64,000 bases of DNA from an uncultured Gemmatimonadales bacterium. Lineage in GTDB: Bacteria; Gemmatimonadota; Gemmatimonadetes; Gemmatimonadales; GWC2-71-9. The position numbers and the translations under genes are program-made. The notes under the pieces were generated by a model. That model was not told the origin of the DNA and did no database searches. It was given only the letters and a program-made list of their open reading frames with translations. The stretch covers positions 448,001 to 512,000 of the forward strand of contig CAWHFW010000002.1 of the NCBI GenBank assembly GCA_963828735.1, read 5' to 3'. Below are positions 40,797 through 53,907 of the stretch, piece after piece (the stretch's first letter is position 1; the number at the start of each line of letters is the position of its first letter).

Positions 40797-42918
40797 ATGC
40801 GCCAATTCGCCCAGATGTTGATCGCAGTCCTCGTCGCCCCCTCCCTCGCCGCCCAGGTGCCGGCACCCGCCGATACCACTCGCCGCGACACCACGCACGT
40901 CACCGAGCTCCCGGAGCTCAACGTGACCGTGACGCGGACGACCGAGCCGTTGACGCGCGTGCCGTTCGCGACCGGCGTCCTCGATCGCACGGCGCTGCAG
41001 CGAGGCCAACAGACGGTCGGCATCGACGAGGCGCTCAACAACATCCCGGGTGTGGTCGTCTCGAACCGGTACAACTATTCGCTCGACCAGCGCATCTCCA
41101 TCCGCGGCTTCGGGAGCCGCTCCAATTTCGGCGTGCGCGGGCTCAAGATCCTGGTGGATGGAGTTCCGCAGACGCTTCCCGACGGCCAAAGCCAGCTCAC
41201 CAACGTGGACTTCGGAAACCTCGAGCGTGCCGAAGTCCTCCGCGGCTCCGCCTCGTCGCTCTACGGGAACGCGTCCGGCGGCGTCATCTCGTTCGAGACC
41301 ATGGGCGCCGCGCAGGCGCCGATCGCCCAGCGCGTGCGGTTTCAGGGCGGAGGCGGCGAGCGGGACGGCGACGGTTTCTACAAGTGGCAGAGCTGGACAT
41401 CCGCTCGGTCGGGCAGCGCGAGCGGGACGCTGTCGATCTCGCAATTCAAGGCCGACGGCTTCCGGCAGCACAGCGCCGGGGAGACCCGACAGCTCAACGC
41501 CGGCGTGGACTACGCCTTCAGCGGCACGACGCTCGGTCGGGTCCGACTGAGCCTGGCGGACAACCCGGAGGCGCAAAATCCGGGAGCGCTGACACGCAAC
41601 GAGTATGTCGCCAATCGGGATTCGGCCGCGGCCTCCAACATCCTCCGCGGCGCCGATAAGGACGTTCAGCAGCAGCAGCTCTCGCTCGGCCTTCAGCATT
41701 TCGACGCCGCGGGCAACGAATACGAGGTGACGGTGTTCGGCGTGCTTCGCAATCTGGCCAATCCGCTCGCGGCGCCGCCCGACATCAATCCGGGACCGAC
41801 GGCAGGCACCTTCGTCACCATCGACCGTGCCGTGGCGGGGCTTCGGCTGAGCGGCAGCCGACGGCTCGGCACGGGCGAGATGGCACCCCGGCTGGTGGCC
41901 GGCGCTGACCTGCAAGGCCTGCGGGACGATCGGACGAACGCCGTATCGGATGCCGGGACGCCGACGGACCAGATCTTTCTCGACCAGCGGGAAAGGGTCA
42001 CCGAGCTCGGCCCGTTCGCCCAGCTCCAATGGAGCCCACACGCAGCAGCTCCTGCTGAACGGCGGCGCGCGCTACGACTGGGTCCACTTCTCCGTGGAGG
42101 ACCACTACCTGGGCGACGGATCCGACGACAGCGGCGCGCGCACGATGTCGTCGCTGAGCGGGAACGTGGGGGCCAGCTGGTCGTTCGGCGACCCGTTCGT
42201 GCCTTACGTGAACGTCTCCACGTCCTTCGAGACCCCGACCACCACGGAGCTCGCGAACCAGCCGGACGGCTCGGGCGGCTTCAATCCGGATCTGGGTCCG
42301 CAACGCGCCGTCAACTACGAGATCGGGGCACGAGGGCAGGCCGCGCCCGGGGTCACCTATTCCGTGGCCCTGTTCCTGGGCCGGATCACGGATGCGATCG
42401 TCCAGGTCGGTGAGATCGGGGGCCGCGCGTTCTTCGGCAACACAGGGAAGACGCACAACGACGGGGCCGAGATCGGGCTCACCGTCACGCCCACGGCGGG
42501 TGTCACCCTGAGCGGTGCCTACACCTACGCGCATTACCGCTTCGCGAGCGGCGACTTCGACGGCAACAAGCTTCCCGGCGTGCCGGATAATTTCGTGCGG
42601 ATCGGGCTCCGGACCTCCCTGCCCCGCGGGTTCTTCCTCGATGCCGACCAGACGATCAGCTCGTCGGTGCCCGCCGACGACGCCAACACGATCATCATCG
42701 ACTCGTGGGACGCGGGAGTCACCAATGCCCGGCTCGGCTGGCAGGGTGTCGCGGGCACCCTGCAACTCGGCCCGTTTCTGGGCGTGAACAACCTGTGGGA
42801 TCGGCAGTACGTCGGGTCGGTGACGCTCAACGGCATCGGCGGGCGCGTGTTCGAGCCCGCACCGAGGCGGGTGATCTATCTGGGAGCGGAGATCGGATAT
42901 CGGACGGCGGGCGAGTAG
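40797..42918 (+). CDS. TonB-dependent receptor, YncD/PqqU-like (frameshift near 42038)
   Basis: Signal peptide; plug NRYNYSLDQRISIRGFGSRSNFGVRG...PDGQ...EVLRG..SLYGNASGG; FETPT..EL; NNLWDRQYVGSV..N...FEPAP. Confidence 0.9.
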
Positions 42919-42946: not shown

Positions 42947-45362
42947 TCACAGCAACGACACCGGATCCCGATCGATCACGACCCGCACCTCCCCCGCGCG
43001 CGCCAACCGCGGCGCCGCGTACCGCACGATGCGGCCCAGCACCTCCGAGGAGCCCTTGAGCAGCAGGTGCCAGCGCCACCGGTCCTTGATGCGAGCGAGG
43101 GGGCACGGCGCGGGCCCCAGGAGCATGACCGGCAAGGCGTACTTCTCGAGCAGTCCCGCGCACCAGTCCGCGAGCTCCGTGGCGCGCCCGCTGACGGCGG
43201 GCTCGTCCGGGCCGGAGATGACGAAGTTCACCAGCGACGTCACCGGCGGGTACGGCGGCGACTCCCGGAGCGCGCGCTCTTCCCGGAGAAACCCCTCGGT
43301 GTCGTGGCGGGCCGACCAGACCAGGGCATGGTGGGTCGGGTGCCGGGTCTGCACGAGTACGCGCCCGCCCTTCGGCCCCCGACCCGCGCGTCCCGCGACC
43401 TGCGCCAGCAGCTGGAAGGTGCGCTCCGCCGCCCGAAAATCGGGCAGGTAGAGGCCGGTGTCGGCGTCCACCACCCCGACCAAGGTCACGTTGGGGAAGT
43501 CGAGCCCCTTGGCGATCATCTGCGTCCCGAGCAGCAGATCCACCTCGCCCGATTCGACCGCGGCAAGGATCCGCTGGTGCGACCACTTGGTGCTCGTCGT
43601 GTCCAGGTCCATGCGCGCCAGCCGGGCCTCGGGATAGCGCTCGGCGAGCAGCCGCTCCAGCTGTTGGGTGCCGAAACCGCGCATCTGCTGCACCGGGCTC
43701 GCGCAGGCGCGGCAGGTGAACGGCAGCGGCTCCTCGTGGCCGCAGTAGTGACAGCGCAGACCCGGCGGCGCCGTGTGCACCGTGAGCGAGATGGTGCAGC
43801 GTGGACACTGCCATACCTCGCCGCAGTCGGGGCACTGGAGGAAAGCGGCGTACCCCCGGCGGTTGAGGAGCAGCAGTCCCTGCTCCTTCCGCGCGAGCGT
43901 CGCCGAGGATCGCCTCGTCGAGCGCTTCGGACCAGGCGACCGCCCCCGTCCCGCTCACCTTGGGCGCGACCCGCAGGTCCACCAGCTCGACCGGCGGCAG
44001 GGGTCGCGCGCCGATCCGTTCGGGAAGTCGCAGCAGCCGGAGCCGCCCCTCCGCCAGTGCCATGGTCTCGAGGGATGGCGTCGCGCTGCCGAGGACCAGG
44101 CCGGCGCCTTCGATCCGCGCGCGGACGGCCGCCACGTCGCGGGCGTGGTATCGCGGCGTCTCGCCGTTCTTGTAGCTGGCCTCGTGCTCCTCGTCGAGCA
44201 CGATCATCCCGAGATCCTGGACCGGCGCGAACACGGCCGAGCGCGCGCCGACGGCCACCCGGCGCTGGCCTCGGCGCAGGAGCCGCCAGGCATCGGCTCG
44301 CTCGCCGTCGGACAGCGCGCTGTGGAGGACGGCGACCTGATCGCCGAAGGCGCCGCGGAGACGGCTCACCGTCTGCGGCGTGAGCCCGATCTCCGGCACC
44401 AGCACGATCGCCCCCCGGCCTGCGGCGAGCATCCGGCGAACGGCCTCGAGATACACGAGCGTCTTACCGCTACCGGTGACGCCGAACAGCACGGCGCCCT
44501 CGCCGGGCCCGAGCGACTGGACGGCCGCCAAGGCCGTCTGTTGATCGGCCGTCAGGCTGGTCGGCGGTGGTATCACGGGAAAGTCGGCGAACGGGTCGCG
44601 CAGGCGCTCGGCGCGGCCGATGCGAACGAGCCCGCGTCGCTCCAGCGCCCGAAGCACGCCCATCGCGAAGCCGAGCTGGCCGGTGACATGGCTGACCAGC
44701 ACGCTGCCGCCGAGTTGTTCGAGCGCCTCGTACAGGCGTCGCTGCTTGACCGCCCGCCGAAAGAGCGTGTCGCGCTCGAGCAGGGTCGGCGGATCGCCCG
44801 CCACGCTCGCGACGCGCTCGGTGAGCGCCGCCGCCTCGGTGTCCGGCGGCTCCACCCGCAGCGACACCGCGCCGACTCGCGCCAGCCGATCCAGCACGTC
44901 CCACACCGGCCGCTTGAGCGCCCGGGCCGCCGTGGCGACCGGCGCCTCGCCGCCGCGCTTCTCGAGCCACGCCACCACGTCCCCGGCGAGCCCGCCGGGC
45001 ACACGGGACCCCCGGACGAGCGATGCGACGACGTGCGACTCCCCCCACAGGCCTCCCGGGAGCATGCTCTTGAGGGTGAGGCCGAGGGGCGCGCCATAGT
45101 AGCCGGCCATCCAGCGGGCCGTTTCGAGCAGCCCGGCTGGGACCGCGGTGTCGACGTCCGGGGCGGCGAGGACGTCTCGGGGCGCGGCCGCAGGCGCGGG
45201 CGCGTCCGTCGCGACGACGATGCCGATCAGCTCCCGCCGGCGGACCGGAACGACGACGCGGGCGCCGGCGACCACCCGGTCGCCCAGCGTCTCGGGAATG
45301 CGGTAGGTGTACGAGGAGGCGAGCGGAAGCGGGAGGGCGACCTGAGCGAAGCGCTCGGTCAT
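42947..45362 (-). CDS. priA: Primosomal protein N' (frameshift near 43905)
   Basis: GVTGSGKT, VPEIGLTPQ, DEEHEASYK, SATPS; second frame CHYCG, GTQMIAKGLDF, QVAGRAGR. Confidence 0.96.
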
Positions 45363-46506: not shown

Positions 46507-47404
46507 TTAGGCGAGCGCGAGCACGTGCGCCAGCACCCCTTCGGCCAGCCGCTCAGGCACGTAGCCCCCCTCGAGCAGCCCGACGACCGGCGCCGCGGGC
46601 AGGCGCTCGCGCAGGCGAAGGGTGAGGTCCTCGTACTGCGCGGGCTCGAGCGTGAATCCGCCCAGGGGATCGCCGAGCATCGCGTCGAAGCCGGCGGAGA
46701 CGAGCACCAGGTCGGGCACCCAGCCCGTCGTCGCCGCGGCGATTGCCGCCCAGAGGTCATCGACGTAGCGCGAGGGCGGAGCGCCCGGGCCGCGGGGCAC
46801 GTTGAACACGTTGCCCACGCCGCGCTCGTCGGCCATGCCGGTCCCGGGATACCACGGGTGCTGATGCAGCGACACGTACCGGACCGTCTCATCGTGCTCG
46901 ATCAGCGCCTGGGTGCCGTTGCCGTGATGAACGTCCCAGTCCACGATCAGCACCCGGTGTCGCCCGGCCCGCTGCGCGTGGCGGGCCGCGATGACCGCGT
47001 TCGCCACGAGGCAGAATCCCATGGCACGCGACGCGAGCGCGTGGTGTCCGGGCGGCCGCACCGCGGCGAAGGCGTTGCCATGGCCGGCGTGCGCGTGATC
47101 CACGGCGGCGAGCACGGCACCGACCGCCCCCAATGCCGCGGACCAGCTCGCGTCGTTCACGATGGTGTCGAGGAAGAGGGCCCCGCCGCCCCGCGCACTC
47201 GCGGCCGCGAGACTCTCGAGGTACTGGCGGGGATGGACGGTCAGCATCGGCTCGATCGAGGCGGCGCGATGCGTCGCGGACGTCGACACCGACCGCAGCT
47301 CGCGCCCGCTCGAGCAGAACGCGCAGCCGCGAGGGGGTTTCAGGATGATCCGGCCCGGGGTCGTGGCGGAGGCAATCCGGGTGGGTGAAGACGGAGATGG
47401 TCAC
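46507..47404 (-). CDS. Histone-deacetylase-family Zn amidohydrolase (frameshift near 47270)
   Basis: HPETPSRL in the first frame; RPPGHHA, GFC, DWDVHHGNGTQ, SAGFD, LEGGY in the second. Confidence 0.93.
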
Positions 47405-47420
47405 GAGCGCGAAACCACCG

Positions 47421-47681
47421 TTATCGGACCGGCCTCCGCCGCTTGGAAAGGACGATCAGGGCGCCGTTGGGCACGACGCCGGCGTCGGCCAGCGATCGCG
47501 ATTCGTCCTGCAGCTCGGCACCGCGGAACTTGAGCACGTACGCGGCGGGGTCCCGGATCACGCGCGTGGCCTCGAGGGCCCGGCGCTTGACCTCGGTCAG
47601 CGGCGTGGAACTCGGGAGATCCAGGCGGACCTCGTCCCACGCGTCTTGCACCATCACCCGGACGGGGAGTGTGTCGCTCAT
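47421..47681 (-). CDS. Small ubiquitin-like (beta-grasp, YukD/EsaB-like) protein
   Basis: 86 aa; YVLKFRGAELQDESRSLADAGV..NGALIVL parallels ubiquitin [27 protein letters not shown]. Confidence 0.75.
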   Translation of the reverse strand: MSDTLPVRVMVQDAWDEVRLDLPSSTPLTEVKRRALEATRVIRDPAAYVLKFRGAELQDESRSLADAGVVPNGALIVLSKRRRPVR

Positions 47682-47950
47682 GCGGACAGCGCCGTGGCGG
47701 ACGGCAGCGTCGACAGGAACCGGTCCACCGCCTGATCAAACAGCAGCGTCGAGGCGCGCACGCGGGTGCCGCCCGGCGCCGGCACTACCGCCAGCGCGAT
47801 CTCTTCCCCACCCTGGCCTCGAAGCGCCAGGTACGTCGGACCCTCCTTCTCGGGGAACGCCGCCTGCAACGGCACGCGCTCGGCGAAAAACCGCTTTGCG
47901 CGGCGCAGGACTTCCGCGCCCTCGAGGGCAGTCACGACTTCGTACACCAT
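47678..47950 (-). CDS. Small hypothetical protein
   Basis: 90 aa, MVYEVVTALEGAEVLRRAKRFF...; its stop overlaps the start of the ubiquitin-like gene (ATGA). Confidence 0.78.
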   Translation of the reverse strand: MVYEVVTALEGAEVLRRAKRFFAERVPLQAAFPEKEGPTYLALRGQGGEEIALAVVPAPGGTRVRASTLLFDQAVDRFLSTLPSATALSA

Positions 47951-47978
47951 GAGCGTTCCGTTGAAGTAGGGTGAGCCG

Positions 47979-48695
47979 TCACGGCGAGCCGGGAAGATAA
48001 TCGGTAGGCTCGACCACCCGCACCGCGGCGTGATAGGTCTTGGCCGGCCGGAGCAGCGCCAGAACACCAGGCTTTCGCCGAAGCACCAGCAGAACCTCTC
48101 CCGGCGGGCCGTCCGCGAGCCCTTCGAGCACGAGAAAGGACGGCAGTGTGGCATCGGGCGGGATCGCCACGTCGTAGTCGCGGCCGGCCCAATGCACCGG
48201 AACCGTCGCCGGCACTTCGCGGACGATGCGATCGAGAAACACGTCGTCCTCGACGCGCCACGCGTCGTCTCCCACGGGAGCACCGGCCAGGAAGAACGCC
48301 GGGTCGAACGCCTCCCCGTCCTGGCGGGCGTAGTTCTGCTCGACCGCCCAGTCGAACTCCTCGAGATCCGGCGCCCGCGCCCGCCACTCCAGGTGGTGGC
48401 GGAGCTCGTGGGTGAGGGTCTCGAACGCCTCTTCCCGCCAGTCGAAGCCGGGCGTGACCCGCGCGAGCGCCTTGAAGGATCCGTGATAGAGCACGACCCG
48501 GCTCTGGATACCCTCGGTCCCGGCGGCCTCGCCCACCGGCAAGGGAATGCATTCCCCCAGGGTGAAAATGCCCGGCCGCTCGGGATGCGGCACCGTTCGC
48601 GGGGAGACGACGATCTCGGCCACGCCGTCAAGGAACTCGCGGGGCACCTCGCCGGCCATCCGCACCACCATCGCTTCGAAGTCGGCCAGGCGCAT
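47979..48695 (-). CDS. Zincin-like metallopeptidase with C-terminal extension
   Basis: RVVLYHGSF...ETLTHELRHH (HExxH) mini-zincin pattern, followed by about 120 extra residues. Confidence 0.85.
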   Translation of the reverse strand: MRLADFEAMVVRMAGEVPREFLDGVAEIVVSPRTVPHPERPGIFTLGECIPLPVGEAAGTEGIQSRVVLYHGSFKALARVTPGFDWREEAFETLTHELRHHLEWRARAPDLEEFDWAVEQNYARQDGEAFDPAFFLAGAPVGDDAWRVEDDVFLDRIVREVPATVPVHWAGRDYDVAIPPDATLPSFLVLEGLADGPPGEVLLVLRRKPGVLALLRPAKTYHAAVRVVEPTDYLPGSP

Positions 48696-48711: not shown

Positions 48712-50049
48712 TCATTCGCCGCCGATGCGCTCCGCGACGTAGGCCGCGACCTGGTCGACCCCGACCCGCTCCTGCTGCATCGAGTCCCGGTGCCGCACGG
48801 TCACGGTCCGCTGTGCTGCCGTGTCGCCGTCGACCGTGATGCCGAACGGCGTTCCGGCCTCGTCCATCCGGCGGTAGCGCCGCCCGATGGCGCCGCTGTC
48901 GTCATAGAACGCGGGGAAGCGTCGCTTGAGATCGTGATACAGCGCCGTAGCGAGCTCCGGCATGCCGTCTTTCTTGACCAGCGGGAACACACCCGCCTTG
49001 ATGGGCGCCACCGCGGGGTGAAAGCCGAGCACGACGCGGGTCTCCCCCTCGACCGTTTCCTCCCGGTACGCATCCACCAGGAGCGTGAGGGCCACGCGGT
49101 CCGCCCCGGCCGAGGTCTCGACGATGTACGGCAGGTAGCGCTCGTTCGCCGCCTGATCGAAGTATTCGAGCTTCTTGCCCGAAAACTCCTGGTGCCGGCC
49201 GAGGTCGAAGTCGCCGCGGTTGTGGATGCCCTCGATCTCCTGCCAGCCGAACGGGAACTCGTACTGGATGTCGAACGCCGCGCGCGCGTAGTGGGCCAGC
49301 TCGTCCTTCCCGTGCTGATGCCACTGGAGCTTCGCGGGCGTGAGGCCGAGATCCGTGTGCCACCGCATGCGCCACTCGCGCCAGCGCTCGAACCAGTCGG
49401 CGTCGGTGCCCGGCTTCACGAAGAACTGCATCTCCATCTGCTCGAACTCGCGGGTCCGGAAGATGAAGTTGCCCGGCGTGATCTCGTTCCGGAACGCCTT
49501 GCCGATCTGCGCGATGCCGAACGGAATCCGCTGCCGCGAGCTCTGCAGGACGTTGAGGTAGTTGACGTAGATGCCCTGCGCCGTCTCGGGCCGGAGATAC
49601 ACCACGGCCGCCTGCTCCTCGACCGGCCCCATGAACGTCTTGAACATCAGATTGAAGAGGCGCGGCTCGGTGAGCGTCCCCTTGCTGCCGCACACGGGAC
49701 ACTGGGCGTCCGGCTGGCCGGGCGTTCCCTTGATGCGTGGGTCGTCGGCGCGAAAGCGGTTCTTGCACTGGCGGCAATCCACCAGCGGATCGGTGAAGCC
49801 GGCGACGTGGCCCGACGCCTCCCACACCCGCGGGTGCATCAGGATGGCGGCATCGAGCCCCTCGATGTCGTCGCGCGCGTGGACCATCGCACGCCACCAG
49901 CGGTCCTTCACGTTCTTCTTGAGCTCGACGCCGAGGGGACCGTAGTCCCAGACCGAGCCCAGTCCGCCATAGATCTCGGAGGACTGGAAGACGAAGCCTC
50001 GGCGCTTGCAGAGGGAGACCAGCTTGTCCATCAGGGTGGTATCGGCCAT
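48712..50049 (-). CDS. glyQS: Glycine--tRNA ligase, homodimeric alpha2 type
   Basis: [68 protein letters not shown]. Confidence 0.98.
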
Positions 50050-50169: not shown

Positions 50170-50451
50170 GTGCAAAACTCACTGCGCCGGGCTCGGTATC
50201 CCCACGCCCGCGCCGACCTGACCTTCCGACCCGTCGAGGGGCACTTCGCCCTTACCGACCGCGCCGGTGCACAGACCGAACTGTTGACGCTCGCCGCCGC
50301 CCTCGTCTGGACCTACTGCGATGGCCGCCACGCCCCCGAGGCCATCGCCAAGGCGATCGCGCGCGCGCTCCCCGAGGCGGCCGAGGATGCCTCGGAGCGG
50401 GTGGCGGCCCTGCTGTCCCGGTTCCGCAGCAAGGGGATATTGAGCATCTAG
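50170..50451 (+). CDS. Stand-alone PqqD-family (RiPP recognition element-like) protein
   Basis: Three predicted strands, then [22 protein letters not shown]...[14 protein letters not shown], matching the PqqD winged-helix pattern. Confidence 0.75.
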
Positions 50452-50683
50452 AGACTCGGCACCGACTTTGAGAACGCCCGAGCCCTCCTGGCCAGCGCTG
50501 GGAGGGCCTTTCCACGTCTGGCCCGAAGGTCCGGCTCTTCGGATCTGCCTACCGCCCGCGCTTTCTGCCCCGTCGAGGCTCGTGGTGCCTGATCGTCAAG
50601 ATCAACAGACACAATGAGTTACGGTTGATCTCGACGTGGCGGAGAACTTGCACGTGCAGATTCGACCCCTCCACCGGCCAGCC

Positions 50684-52759
50684 ATGGGCTCCACGCCAGA
50701 GGGAGGCGACTCCCTCACCCACGCCGCGGGCGCGCGCTCGGTCGCGACCCTGTCCCGGGACTTGGCGGATTTTCTCGTCGAGTTCTCCATCGTGCTGCAC
50801 AAGCGCGCGATGTACCCTCTGGGGCATCCCCACCTCCAGGAATCCACCTCTCGATTCGTCGACCGGCTCGAGTCCCTCCTCTCCCCGAGGGAGTCCCTGG
50901 CCATCGGCATCGCCCGCCAGCAACTCATCGTGGCCGGGACCGCTACCAATCCGCGCAACGCCCTGCTCAGCGACCTCGCCCGACGCTTTCACCGGCACCG
51001 CATCGCGACGGTGCGCTTCGACCGCGGGGTGGGCCTGCAGGAGATCGACGACCTGCTGGCGGGCGTGGCGGCCGATCCGCAGGGCGAGGCCGGGCCGTTC
51101 GGTCTCCGTCCCGGTGTGGGCGCCGCGTGGGTGCACCTTCGGATCCAGCCGCCCGAGCTCACCCGCATGTTCCTGCAGGACGACGACGAGCCTGCCGAGC
51201 GGCCGGAGACGCCGGCCGGCGCGCTCTGGCTCGGCCTCGCTCACCTCGCGCTGTCGGGGGACGGTAGCCCGACGGACGACGCCGAGGATCCCCTGCTCGT
51301 CGCCCGCGCCATCGACGCCCAGCCGGAGCAGGTGGCGTACGACCGGGTGGTGCTCGACTACCTGAACCAGATCGCCGACGAGATGTCCGGTCGCCACGGC
51401 GCATGGGAGCCGCGGATTCGCGAGCGGGTCTCGCGATTGGTCACCTCGCTCAAGCCCGAAACGCTTCGCCGCGTGCTGGAGGCCGCTACCAACGACGACG
51501 AGCGCCGCCAGTTCGCGCTCACCGCCTCACAGGTTCTGGCCGTCGAGGCGGTTATCGAGGTCGTAGAGGCCGCGGCGGCCACGAGCGGGCAGACGATCTC
51601 GCACCAGCTGTTGCGCCTGCTGCACAAGTTCGCCCAACACGCCGAGAGCGGCCCGGAAGGCGTGCGCGCGGAGGCGGAATCCACGCTTCGCGAGAACGTC
51701 GCGCAGCTGCTCAAGGGGTGGGCGCTGGAAGACCCGAATCCGGGCGCCTACACGGCCGTCCTCGAGGGCATGGTGCGGCAGTCCCCCCAGACACACACCG
51801 CGGCGGACGGGCAGCTCGACTGCGAGCCCGACACGCTGCTGCAGCTGGCTCTGGAGCTGGACTGCGTGGGACCGCGGGTCGAGCATGCGCTCGACATGCT
51901 GATCGAGACCAATCGGGTCCCCGCCGCGCTCGACCTGCTTCGCGCAGCGCCCGCCGAGGCGAGCGCGACCGCGGAAACGCTGTGGCGTCGCCTGGCGACG
52001 CCGGGCCGACTCGAGGCGGCGATCGGCGCCGACCAACCGGACTTCGCGACGATCGAGGGGCTGGTGGCTCGACTCGGCCCGATGGCGACCGAGCCGCTGC
52101 TCGACCTGCTCGAGCGGGCGACGATCAGCTCGGTCCGTGGCCGCGCGCTCCGCCTGCTGGTCGAGATCGGCCCATCGGTGGCGCCGGCCGCCGTGGCTCG
52201 GCTCAAGGACGCCCCCTGGTACGTGCAACGCAACGTGCTGGCCCTGCTCCGCACCCTGCACGTCTGGCCACCGGACTTCTCGGCTGTGTCGTACGCGCGA
52301 CATCCCGAGCCTCGGCTGCGCCGGGAGGCCTACCGCCTGCTGCTCGACTTTCCACCCCACCGGGCATCCGCCATCGCGCACGGCCTGGACGACTCCAGCG
52401 CCGACATTGTGACCCTCGTGCTGCGCGCCGCCGTGGACGACTGTCCGCGTGAGGCTCTGCGAGCCCTCGAGCGATTCACCGAGGACCGTCGCCGCCCGGC
52501 CGAGCTTCGCGCGCTCGCGGTTCGCGCAGTCGCCCGCGATGGGGGCGTGCAGGCCGTGCCCAGGCTGTTGCAGCTCGCCGGGGCCCGCCGCTCCTTCTTC
52601 GGGTGGCGGTTGGACGCCAGCACGCCCGTCGCCCTCGCCGCCGTCTCGGCGCTCGCACGGTACTTCGGCGCCGATCCGCACGTGGCGGGGTTGCTCCAGG
52701 CCGCGCGCGAGCACAGTAACGCGGACATCCGTCTCGCCGCGCGGATGCGTTCCGCATGA
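50684..52759 (+). CDS. HEAT-repeat protein with unnamed N-terminal domain
   Basis: C-terminal repeats RLKDAPWYVQRNVLALL, HPEPRLRREA, HSNADIRLAA. Start at 50684 or 50636. Confidence 0.85.
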   Translation: MGSTPEGGDSLTHAAGARSVATLSRDLADFLVEFSIVLHKRAMYPLGHPHLQESTSRFVDRLESLLSPRESLAIGIARQQLIVAGTATNPRNALLSDLARRFHRHRIATVRFDRGVGLQEIDDLLAGVAADPQGEAGPFGLRPGVGAAWVHLRIQPPELTRMFLQDDDEPAERPETPAGALWLGLAHLALSGDGSPTDDAEDPLLVARAIDAQPEQVAYDRVVLDYLNQIADEMSGRHGAWEPRIRERVSRLVTSLKPETLRRVLEAATNDDERRQFALTASQVLAVEAVIEVVEAAAATSGQTISHQLLRLLHKFAQHAESGPEGVRAEAESTLRENVAQLLKGWALEDPNPGAYTAVLEGMVRQSPQTHTAADGQLDCEPDTLLQLALELDCVGPRVEHALDMLIETNRVPAALDLLRAAPAEASATAETLWRRLATPGRLEAAIGADQPDFATIEGLVARLGPMATEPLLDLLERATISSVRGRALRLLVEIGPSVAPAAVARLKDAPWYVQRNVLALLRTLHVWPPDFSAVSYARHPEPRLRREAYRLLLDFPPHRASAIAHGLDDSSADIVTLVLRAAVDDCPREALRALERFTEDRRRPAELRALAVRAVARDGGVQAVPRLLQLAGARRSFFGWRLDASTPVALAAVSALARYFGADPHVAGLLQAAREHSNADIRLAARMRSA

Positions 52760-53907
52760 GCGAGCCGGTCCGCTTCCTCACCTCCCTCTCGCAGGCGCTC
52801 TCGACGCTCGCCCTCTATGGCGAGGGTCACCCCGCCGTCCGCCGCGCGACGGACAGCGCCTACCGCCATCTCGCCGACCTGCAGGCCGGCGGCGGCGCCC
52901 TGGTGTTCACGTTTCTGCCCGAAGAGGTGCTGTTCGGGCGCGACCTCCTGCCCGATCTCGAGCGGTGGGAGTGGAGCAACCGGTTTGCGCAGGGCGGCGT
53001 GGAACGGCTCGAGATCGACGGCGCGGTGTCGGAGCCGCAGTTCGACCGCTTCCTCGGTCATCTCGCCGCGGTGGTCGGGTTGGCGGGTGACGCCCGCTCG
53101 GACCTGTGGCAGGACGGCCCCGAAGGCATCCGCTTCGGGCGCGTCCGGCTGGACGCCGGCGGCCCGGCACCGGCTCAACCTCTGCCCGTCGCCAAGCTGG
53201 CCTACTCACTCAGAGAGGAGCGCGACGCCGTGGGCTGGATGCACCAGGAGGTGAGCGCAGGCCACTCCCTTCCGTTGCTCGAGGCCTACGGCGTGGTCCG
53301 CTCGCTGTCGCTCGCGATGCACGGCGGCCAGGCGATGGTGATGCCGCTCCTCCAGCTCAAGGAGTTCGACCAGTACACCACGACCCACTCCATGAACGTC
53401 TCGGTCCTGGCGATGTCCCTGGGCGAATTCCTCGGCGCGGCGCCCACGGCAGTGCGGAGCTTTGGACTCGCCGGGTTGCTCCACGATCTGGGCAAGGTGA
53501 GGATCCCGCGGGAGATTCTGGCAAAACCAGGGAAGCTCACGCCCGAGGAGCGGACGGTGGTCGAGGCGCATCCCTCGGATGGAGCCCGGCTCATCCTTCG
53601 CGGTGACGAGCCGCTGGACCTGGCCGCGGTCGTGGCCTACGAGCATCACCGTTACCACGATGGCGGCGGATATCCCCGGGTCCATTACGACCGCGCGGCC
53701 CACCACGCCAGCCGCCTGGTCCACGTCTGCGACGTGTACGACGCCCTCCGCACCCGCCGTCCCTATCGCGACGCCTGGTCGTCCACCGAGGCGCTCACCT
53801 ACATCCATGACCGGGCCGGCTCGGAGTTCGACCCCGCGATGGCCGCCACGTTCATCGAGATGATGCGGCGATGGGACGACCGCATTGCCCTCCAGGAAAT
53901 CGCCTGA
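52756..53907 (+). CDS. HD-GYP-domain cyclic-dinucleotide phosphodiesterase
   Basis: YTTTHS, LLHDLGK, KPGKLT, EHHRYHDGGGYP, DVYDALRTRRPYR, FDP; ATGA overlap with the HEAT gene. Confidence 0.92.
   Translation: MSEPVRFLTSLSQALSTLALYGEGHPAVRRATDSAYRHLADLQAGGGALVFTFLPEEVLFGRDLLPDLERWEWSNRFAQGGVERLEIDGAVSEPQFDRFLGHLAAVVGLAGDARSDLWQDGPEGIRFGRVRLDAGGPAPAQPLPVAKLAYSLREERDAVGWMHQEVSAGHSLPLLEAYGVVRSLSLAMHGGQAMVMPLLQLKEFDQYTTTHSMNVSVLAMSLGEFLGAAPTAVRSFGLAGLLHDLGKVRIPREILAKPGKLTPEERTVVEAHPSDGARLILRGDEPLDLAAVVAYEHHRYHDGGGYPRVHYDRAAHHASRLVHVCDVYDALRTRRPYRDAWSSTEALTYIHDRAGSEFDPAMAATFIEMMRRWDDRIALQEIA

Follow-up and report, generated by a model that had tools for sequence, protein, structure and literature searches.

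The locus described here raises the question of which of its neighbours a small bacterial ubiquitin-fold protein works with. It lies in a stretch of 64,000 nucleotides (the window) from an uncultured Gemmatimonadales bacterium (GenBank assembly GCA_963828735.1, contig CAWHFW010000002.1, positions 448,001 to 512,000), which is part of contig C2 of the source genome, G000 (97.5% complete); the only other contig cited below is C5. Close homologs carry Gemmatimonadales labels. On the minus strand, glyQS, with its stop at 48712, is followed in order by genes for a zincin, a 90-residue protein (the partner), an 86-residue ubiquitin-like protein (Ubl) and a deacylase of the histone deacetylase (HDAC) family, separated by 16, 28, -4 and 16 nucleotides (nt). 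This order and spacing, recovered here from the sequence, are as given in a preliminary description of the locus, which had read the four co-oriented, tightly packed genes as a candidate module for protein modification or degradation. Our results support a smaller grouping, in that the partner and the Ubl form an undescribed two-gene ubiquitin-fold unit; no description of the pair was found in the open-licence PMC and bioRxiv literature, supplements excluded. As to its cellular role, we infer from sequence comparison and structure models a coupled pair that makes a putative non-covalent adaptor complex, with the zincin and the deacylase as ordinary neighbours, a reading to which we give about an even chance.

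The genes for the partner (47678..47950, minus strand) and the Ubl (47421..47681, minus strand) overlap by 4 nt in an ATGA, and the tight coupling that was proposed for them from the window extends to their relatives. A neighbourhood survey covered 80 regions of about 12 kb, hand-picked across genera from 149 Ubl matches, of which one (L101, a weak second Ubl match with neither gene) was removed before counting; at all 79 counted loci, which come from five families, the gene immediately in front of the Ubl, on the same strand, is the partner. The same holds for 79 of 80 loci of a sister lineage (records titled Gemmatimonadota, Candidatus (Ca.) Palauibacter, Ca. Carthagonibacter and Ca. Benthicola), the exception being at a contig end, and for all but one, a truncated locus, of the 62 metagenome loci that match the Ubl (61/62). 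A locus titled Akkermansiaceae (L348) is of the typical Gemmatimonadota type and is possibly a mis-binned contig. The Ubl was found in 148 of 201 genomes of the phylum, nearly always as a single match, with 95/96 genomes in family f1, 37/38 in f2, 3/3 in f3, 1/1 in f5 and 11/11 in f6, and was not found in those of f4, f7, f8 and f9-f12. The partner profile matches 173 of the 201 genomes, mostly with two copies each; these tallies, and those of the zincin below, include one unpublished genome, G157.

Nature has also joined the two proteins. Two clean in-frame partner-Ubl fusions, which share 61% identity, are represented by P0393 (MFQ5889132.1, in NCBI and Logan) and by P0394-P0396 (MFQ5690480.1 and two Logan sequences). 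The search that was made for such fusions scored 8000 candidates of 194-2000 residues, lengths of 152-193 residues lying outside its range, and returned three, one of them garbled. P0392, P0307 and L333 were rejected as fusions on account of garbled segments that are likely frameshift artefacts. Covariation analysis gave no coherent inter-protein patch in f1-f3 (152 pairs, effective number 99.6, 177 columns) or in the sister lineage (78 pairs, effective number 28.8), both alignments being too shallow.

The 86-residue protein is predicted to fold like ubiquitin. The pattern LKFRGAELQDESRSLADAGV, on which the earlier beta-grasp assignment was based, is present in the window sequence, and an AlphaFold2 (AF2) model made from an alignment of 80 orthologs (predicted local distance difference test score, pLDDT, 92.7) matched ubiquitin variants, NEDD8, SUMO and BilA in Foldseek at E about 1e-6. 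With VIA-align the model gave Z 12.5 against BilA (8tyz; root-mean-square deviation (rmsd) 2.1, 80 residues aligned) and Z 11.0 against YukD (2bps; rmsd 1.9, 77 aligned), scores that sit in a long series of near-tied Ubl matches; the model and both fold searches agree on a beta-grasp. At the level of profiles, the Ubl family matches ubiquitin chains at E about 1e-4. The window Ubl scores below the Pfam cut-offs for YukD (PF08817, 18.3 bits versus 27) and DUF2604 (PF10790, 20.5 versus 25); weak matches to these families occur in 34/80 (best E 2.2e-7) and 30/80 (best 1.2e-5) Ubl members, respectively, and some close relatives of the window Ubl carry a precomputed PF08817 label. The protein ends in SKRRRPVR (GALIVLSKRRRPVR), with no Gly after the last strand. 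Among 71 Ubls from f1-f3, none has Gly-Gly within the last 12 residues and 3 have a Gly anywhere in the last 10, while 70 have at least three Arg or Lys in the last 8.

The partner has no family in Pfam, NCBIfam, PDB-sequence, Atlas and viral-fold searches, and a single START match (E 0.026) was obtained among 80 of its members. Its AF2 model (pLDDT 92.1) has a beta-alpha-beta4-alpha topology with five strands, which we predict to be a KA1/TBP-like fold, i.e. half a helix-grip. The best VIA-align match is the regulatory domain of CIPK14 (2zfd; Z 9.8, rmsd 1.9, 80 aligned), with the KA1 domain of Chk1 at Z 9.1, and START/polyketide-cyclase proteins tie within 1 of the KA1 scores (8iha; Z 9.4, rmsd 3.1, 90 aligned); the best Foldseek E value is 1.7e-3. 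The VCR of METTL16 (Z 7.8) is among the matches, as are, with a middling score, residues 89-165 of the Thermus MoaD fusion 1v8c, its C-terminal domain (Z 7.4, rmsd 1.9, 66 aligned). Homology of the partner to DUF1952 (PF09189) was considered and rejected, there being no profile match at the partner genes of 5 genomes and a positive control in Thermus. No E2/RWD fold appears among the top 50 fold matches, and Cys is present in only 4/79 partners.

The two copies that most genomes carry belong to two clades, A and C, which are homologous (hhalign probability 98.8) and which separate in a tree of 31 rows with support 93/96; the careful tree and the approximately unbiased (AU) test used these 31 of 76 rows, the 76-row tree being made in quick mode only. 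In f1-f3, the window included, the partner in front of the Ubl is of clade A, and in 12/12 f5/f6 genomes it is of clade C. Clade C lies elsewhere in the genome in 46/48 sampled f1-f3 genomes, and both clades are also found in f5/f6. From these sequence comparisons, the paralog in front of the Ubl appears not to be the same one in all families. In G000 the second copy (clade C, L262; C5:173743-174031, minus strand) is frame-split and lies between genes that we take to be inositol-phosphate synthase-like and H+-pyrophosphatase-like; no beta-grasp neighbour was found at 30 checked lone clade C loci of f1-f3. Clade C relatives stand alone in 30/30 f4/f7/f8 genomes, two of them (L243, L247) in the symporter-helicase neighbourhood that holds partner and Ubl in f6. 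Clade A, for its part, lies directly upstream of moaD in 15/15 f5/f6/f8 genomes (L185-L199), with HU, sppA and carA upstream where examined, and the partner is absent from 29/29 moaD loci of f1-f4 and f7 and from the moaD locus of G000. A functional link to moaD was considered and is weakened by these 0/29 loci and by HU-moaD-moaE being a common operon; the position before moaD may be only the ancestral one. A further partner subgroup, with an RGSASRG motif and lengths of 99-149 residues, was seen on short metagenome contigs only (P0312, P0360, P0361, P0375, P0388, P0390 and others) and is closest to the f8 copies.

The C-terminal tails of the Ubls and a loop of the partners vary between lineages. 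An acidic RGxGxEE loop, RGQGGEE in the window, is present in 71/71 f1-f3 partners, alongside a basic Ubl tail in 70/71, and is found in 0/15 moaD-adjacent clade A copies and 0/8 f5/f6 partners. The sister-lineage Ubls end in [FY]-x-G at 80/80 loci, with 13 different penultimate residues; their tail (L276-L355) reads GH[YF]xx[FY]xG with the last Gly invariant in 80/80, and it is not basic, at least three Arg/Lys being found in 0/8. The lone clade C copies end in x-[ADSG]-[YF], 23/30 of them in exactly GAY, and the lone partner homologs of f4/f7/f8 (L160-L184, L243-L248) end in LPY[EQ]x[GF]D (26/26), an ending with a loose likeness to YDLGH in the tail of sister-lineage Ubls. The loop and tail patterns fit docking of the tail on the partner, with few independent events among them.

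We then ask what becomes of the two enzymes with which the pair was first grouped, and of the model in which the zincin and the HDAC-family deacylase have the two small proteins as their substrates or adaptors. Both enzymes are what they were said to be. The zincin, a metallopeptidase of 238 residues (47979..48695, minus strand), has its HExxH motif, HELRH, at residue 96, and scores 25.7 bits for Zincin_1 (PF06262), the cut-off being 22.4. For the deacylase (46507..47404, minus strand), the motifs reported as intact are indeed all present, as is PF00850 (E 1.9e-70, C-terminal open reading frame (ORF)), but no single ORF holds them in the assembly: a GTG start at 47404 and an HPE motif are in one frame, and RPPGHHA, GFC, DWDVHHGNGT, SLHQ, SAGFD and LEGGY are in the catalytic ORF at 46507-47289. 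The break is an assembly error of one extra base, because the base at 47267 is missing from the contigs of 4/4 DNA runs (4 studies) and the motifs are in a single reading frame at 50/79 relatives' loci.

What does not survive the survey is the four-gene module. In its favour are the tight spacing in the window genome, the presence of all four genes within 6 kb at 32/79 loci, and the position of the deacylase, which is within 6 kb of the Ubl at 55 loci and directly behind it at 26/79, including 12/27 of those from f2. Against it, all four genes are contiguous at only 6/79 or 8/79 loci, the number varying with the gap rule, three other genes (glyQS, priA and that of the epimerase) are similarly frequent neighbours, and neither enzyme was found within 4 kb of the Ubl in 80 sister-lineage loci. 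The zincin, within 6 kb of the Ubl at 33/79 loci and directly upstream at 12/79, is also uncoupled from the pair genome-wide: it is absent where the Ubl is present (0/38 versus 37/38 genomes in f2), is found in 68/96 f1 genomes (i.e. not in 28), and is present where the Ubl was not found (23/23 versus 0/23 in f7, 4/4 versus 0/4 in f4, 3/3 versus 0/3 in f8, thus 30/30). The four-gene module is not conserved, because contiguity is rare, the zincin is uncoupled and no hydrolase is near the sister loci; such a lack of conserved neighbourhood is part of what the preliminary description had itself named as refuting the module. We thus regard the model as very unlikely and, for the zincin, as largely refuted; a minor link of the pair to the deacylase may exist, and both enzymes are likely ordinary neighbours in a housekeeping operon.

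Other genes also occur behind the Ubl. At f2 loci a MoxR ATPase operon is found there in 14/27 cases and the deacylase in 12/27; the operon, MoxR-DUF58-DUF4175-DUF4159, often begins with an overlapping stop/start (L105:6321-7349, plus strand, and 13 other f2 loci). In f1, a probable membrane protein of 89 residues with no Pfam match often lies between Ubl and deacylase (L036:5743-6012, minus strand, and 12 other loci).

The machinery with which characterised ubiquitin-like proteins work is likewise not encoded beside the pair. As the preliminary description stated, the window holds no activating enzyme (E1), JAB or type VII secretion system (T7SS) partner; the only ThiF match and the best JAB match of G000 are on C5, away from the window contig, and no co-operonic E1 was found among the annotated neighbour clusters of the Ubl loci. 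The C5 operon (L141, G000:C5:148824-152528) encodes a JAB peptidase and a ThiF (MoeZ) protein to which a GG-type Ubl is joined in frame; we further take it to include a CysM-like gene and a rhodanese domain on the ThiF protein, presumably with a tRNA and an smpB-like gene downstream. WXG100 was not found in the genome, nor was the Pup ligase PafA (PF03136), with positive controls in both cases, and the EssC model scored far below its cut-off in 5/5 genomes. PF00227, the 20S family, gives one match per genome, which in G000 we take, from its motif, to be HslV. The profile PF00179 for conjugating enzymes (E2) matched nothing, its control being likewise silent and prokaryotic E2 families not being searched for. 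A role as a p97/Cdc48 cofactor was also considered and was rejected, as no CDC48_N was found in 5/5 genomes with positive controls.

As the Ubl has no terminal Gly, and no E1, E2 or T7SS is encoded with it, we propose that it is an unconjugated adaptor. In the proposed mechanism, the ATGA overlap would couple translation of the two genes and so provide matched amounts of partner and Ubl; the Ubl would stay unconjugated and its conserved C-terminal tail would dock on the beta-sheet platform of the partner, which in the window may bring the Arg-rich tail onto the partner's acidic hairpin, RGQGGEE. A third subunit may be provided by the second, clade C paralog, whose gene lies at another place in the genome, and the complex would help to scaffold or assemble a housekeeping machine, a role that has been proposed for YukD and TmoB. 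Several observations weigh against this proposal. The partner family is found without a detectable Ubl in 30/30 f4/f7/f8 genomes and, because it persists there, the partner can work alone. The fusions carry a clade C partner, and not the clade A partner of the window; the AU test does not reject a tree that groups every Ubl-adjacent partner in a single clade (p=0.064, 31 rows); and the covariation of loop and tail, seen among related and hence non-independent loci, amounts to a single evolutionary event. In the sister lineages, the invariant Gly at the end of the Ubl could mean E1 activation. Finally, by the account in passages of a recent preprint, purified RatA and RatB failed to form a complex, and the role of RatB is unclear (bioRxiv 10.64898/2026.05.04.722385).

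The persistence of the partner without a Ubl in f4, f7 and f8 is what would be expected if the two were loosely linked in the manner of ratA-ratB, with the KA1/half-START protein as the working unit and the Ubl as a dispensable accessory. The START/polyketide-cyclase fold matches (8iha, Z 9.4) are consistent with this, as is the conservation of RatA (START) and RnfH (beta-grasp) as a pair, described in part of Iyer et al. (PMC1779556), and the complementation of the deletion by RatA alone, stated in passages of the RatA-RatB preprint (bioRxiv 10.64898/2026.05.04.722385). The natural fusions and the strong conservation of the tail argue against a dispensable Ubl, however, as does its position behind a partner-family member, apparently from different paralogs, in every complete locus; at 90 residues the partner is also shorter than its START-type matches (about 120-150). 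We consider this alternative unlikely; in it the partner, perhaps as a dimer of the two paralogs, would bind a lipid, a ligand or a peptide, and stable binding of the Ubl would not be required. The ubiquitin-like domain of SF3A1 binds RNA, and the basic tail of 70/71 f1-f3 Ubls might likewise bind RNA or DNA, with help from the KA1-like partner, in translation or RNA metabolism. The SF3A1-RNA complex (8id2, Z 11.4) is among the tied Ubl fold matches, the METTL16 VCR is among those of the partner, and the neighbours include glyQS, priA, HU and a DbpA-type helicase. Fold matches, however, say nothing on function, these neighbours are generic housekeeping genes, and the sister-lineage tail, which ends GH[YF]xxFxG, is non-basic (0/8); a nucleic-acid-binding module is in our view quite unlikely.

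Of the readings that involve conjugation, the one closest to the window has its Ubl activated by a housekeeping MoeB/ThiF-type E1 without an E2, with the partner as specificity factor. The [FY]-x-G ends of the sister Ubls, with their variable penultimate residue, could be so interpreted, as passages of a study of BilA describe a single conserved Gly, exposed by a deubiquitinase (DUB), as all that BilA needs (10.1101/2023.09.26.559546), and a ThiF gene lies within 4 kb at 24/80 sister loci; the position of clade A before moaD in f5/f6/f8 might be added. The window Ubl, however, has no Gly after its last strand, and those of f1-f3 seldom have one near the end and never a terminal Gly-Gly; the single ThiF of the genome has its own fused Ubl, and the ThiF genes near f6 loci are separated from the pair by opposite-strand serC-serA and flip in orientation. 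The scarcity of Cys in the partners and the lack of an E2/RWD fold among their top matches do not suggest a conjugating role for the partner, and the moaD operons of f1-f4 and f7 do without it. For the system as it stands in the window, conjugation is thus highly improbable. We are somewhat less sceptical of a wider version, itself doubtful, in which a core lineage-wide system combines the Ubl with two paralogous KA1-like receptors that read C-terminal tails: the F-x-G Ubl of the sister lineage would be activated by a housekeeping MoeB-type E1 and, handled by the receptor, would serve as a modifier or carrier that needs no E2, and the Gemmatimonadales form would be non-conjugating, Arg-tailed and served by a switched receptor. 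Were the sister Ubl indeed E1-activated and the Gemmatimonadales form an adaptor, the pair would be a snapshot of a housekeeping ubiquitin-like modifier turning into a pure adaptor. A YukD/EsaB-type component of a T7SS, finally, we regard as next to excluded: the weak YukD matches in 34/80 members, the Z of 11.0 to 2bps and the unconjugated state of YukD, for which passages of Iyer et al. may be cited (PMC1779556), are set against a genome with no WXG100, EssC scores far below the cut-off in 5/5 genomes and annotated neighbour clusters with no T7SS family.

The surroundings of the pair in the window are those of a housekeeping operon. Four RNA runs compared with it contributed contigs only, in small shares and mostly from related strains. 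Upstream of the zincin, glyQS (glycine-tRNA ligase; 48712..50049, minus strand) matches NCBIfam PRK04173 at 645.8 bits against a cut-off of 312 and is within 6 kb at 59/79 loci. Beyond the deacylase lie an Ala-Glu epimerase-like gene and then priA (42947-45362, minus strand), the N- and C-terminal Pfam domains of which fall in different ORFs in two frames, probably through another assembly indel. Further on, a split gene of two overlapping ORFs (40797-42918, plus strand) presumably encodes a TonB-dependent receptor-like protein. Divergent from glyQS is a gene for a stand-alone PqqD-family protein (50170-50451, plus strand; PF05402 above cut-off), which is near glyQS in a few relatives too, and at 50636-53907 (plus strand) a 707-residue protein with weak HEAT-repeat matches is encoded by a gene that overlaps an HD_5 (HD-GYP-like) gene.

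To our knowledge, bacterial proteins with a eukaryote-like ubiquitin fold have been described mostly in type VII secretion and in defence operons of sporadic occurrence. The gene for the Ubl described here is nearly universal in a major soil lineage and is tied to a family of proteins that is unannotated and for which Pfam has no model, and the fusions of the pair, its two tail types (RRRPVR and FxG) and its two partner paralogs bear on the role of non-conjugated bacterial Ubls such as RatB/RnfH. The terms YukD, DUF2604 and Gemmatimonad are absent from the main text of a preprint on Ubl diversity (10.1101/2024.11.21.623966). With YukD/EsaB (PF08817, 2bps) the Ubl shares a five-stranded ubiquitin-like fold, a stand-alone small size, the lack of a terminal Gly-Gly and weak profile matches; according to Iyer et al. 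(2006; PMC1779556), YukD is not conjugated and is linked to the export of ESAT-6. Unlike YukD/EsaB, however, the pair is without T7SS genes nearby or in the genome, it has a dedicated KA1-like partner, and its Ubl has a conserved Arg-rich or FxG tail and is near-universal in its lineage.

The likeness to RatA-RatB (PasT-PasI; a START Coq10 homolog and RnfH of beta/gamma-proteobacteria) lies in the overlapping genes, in the order of a helix-grip-related and then a beta-grasp protein, and in the housekeeping neighbourhood. In the passages of Iyer et al. concerned, RnfH is conserved beside a START-domain gene and smpB (PMC1779556), and part of the 2026 preprint calls RatB function elusive (10.64898/2026.05.04.722385). 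The pair differs in that its partner is a half-grip/KA1-like protein of 90 residues and not a full START domain, in having two partner paralogs and in the existence of fusions. The RnfH Pfam family has no match in 80 Ubl members, and smpB is absent from 29 annotated neighbour clusters, no specific search for a divergent smpB having been made. No structure matches better than BilA/BubA (8tyx, 8tyz), which shares the top Z of 12.5 (profile E 0.03), but the Ubls of the window's lineage have no conserved Gly near the C-terminus and no E1, E2 or DUB in their operon, and theirs is a core gene whereas BilA/BubA is part of a sporadic defence operon.

For the partner, the Thermus protein 1v8c (MoaD plus DUF1952, PF09189) offers a beta-grasp joined to a domain of similar fold, and clade A lies upstream of moaD in three families; the Z score is middling, however, the DUF1952 profile misses the partner, the domain order is reversed and the Ubl of the pair does not resemble MoaD. 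The highest fold scores of the partner (Z 8-10) are with KA1 domains (CIPK14 2zfd, Chk1 5wi2, SAD, MARK), yet the partner is a stand-alone bacterial protein with 7-14% identity to them and no Pfam KA1 match, so that their function is not transferable. Burroughs et al. (2007; PMC1949818) class the YukD and RnfH types, in the passages concerned, as adaptors or assembly factors. By the features compared here, the pair works most like such non-conjugated Ubls, yet is a member of neither the YukD/T7SS, the RatAB nor the BilA system.

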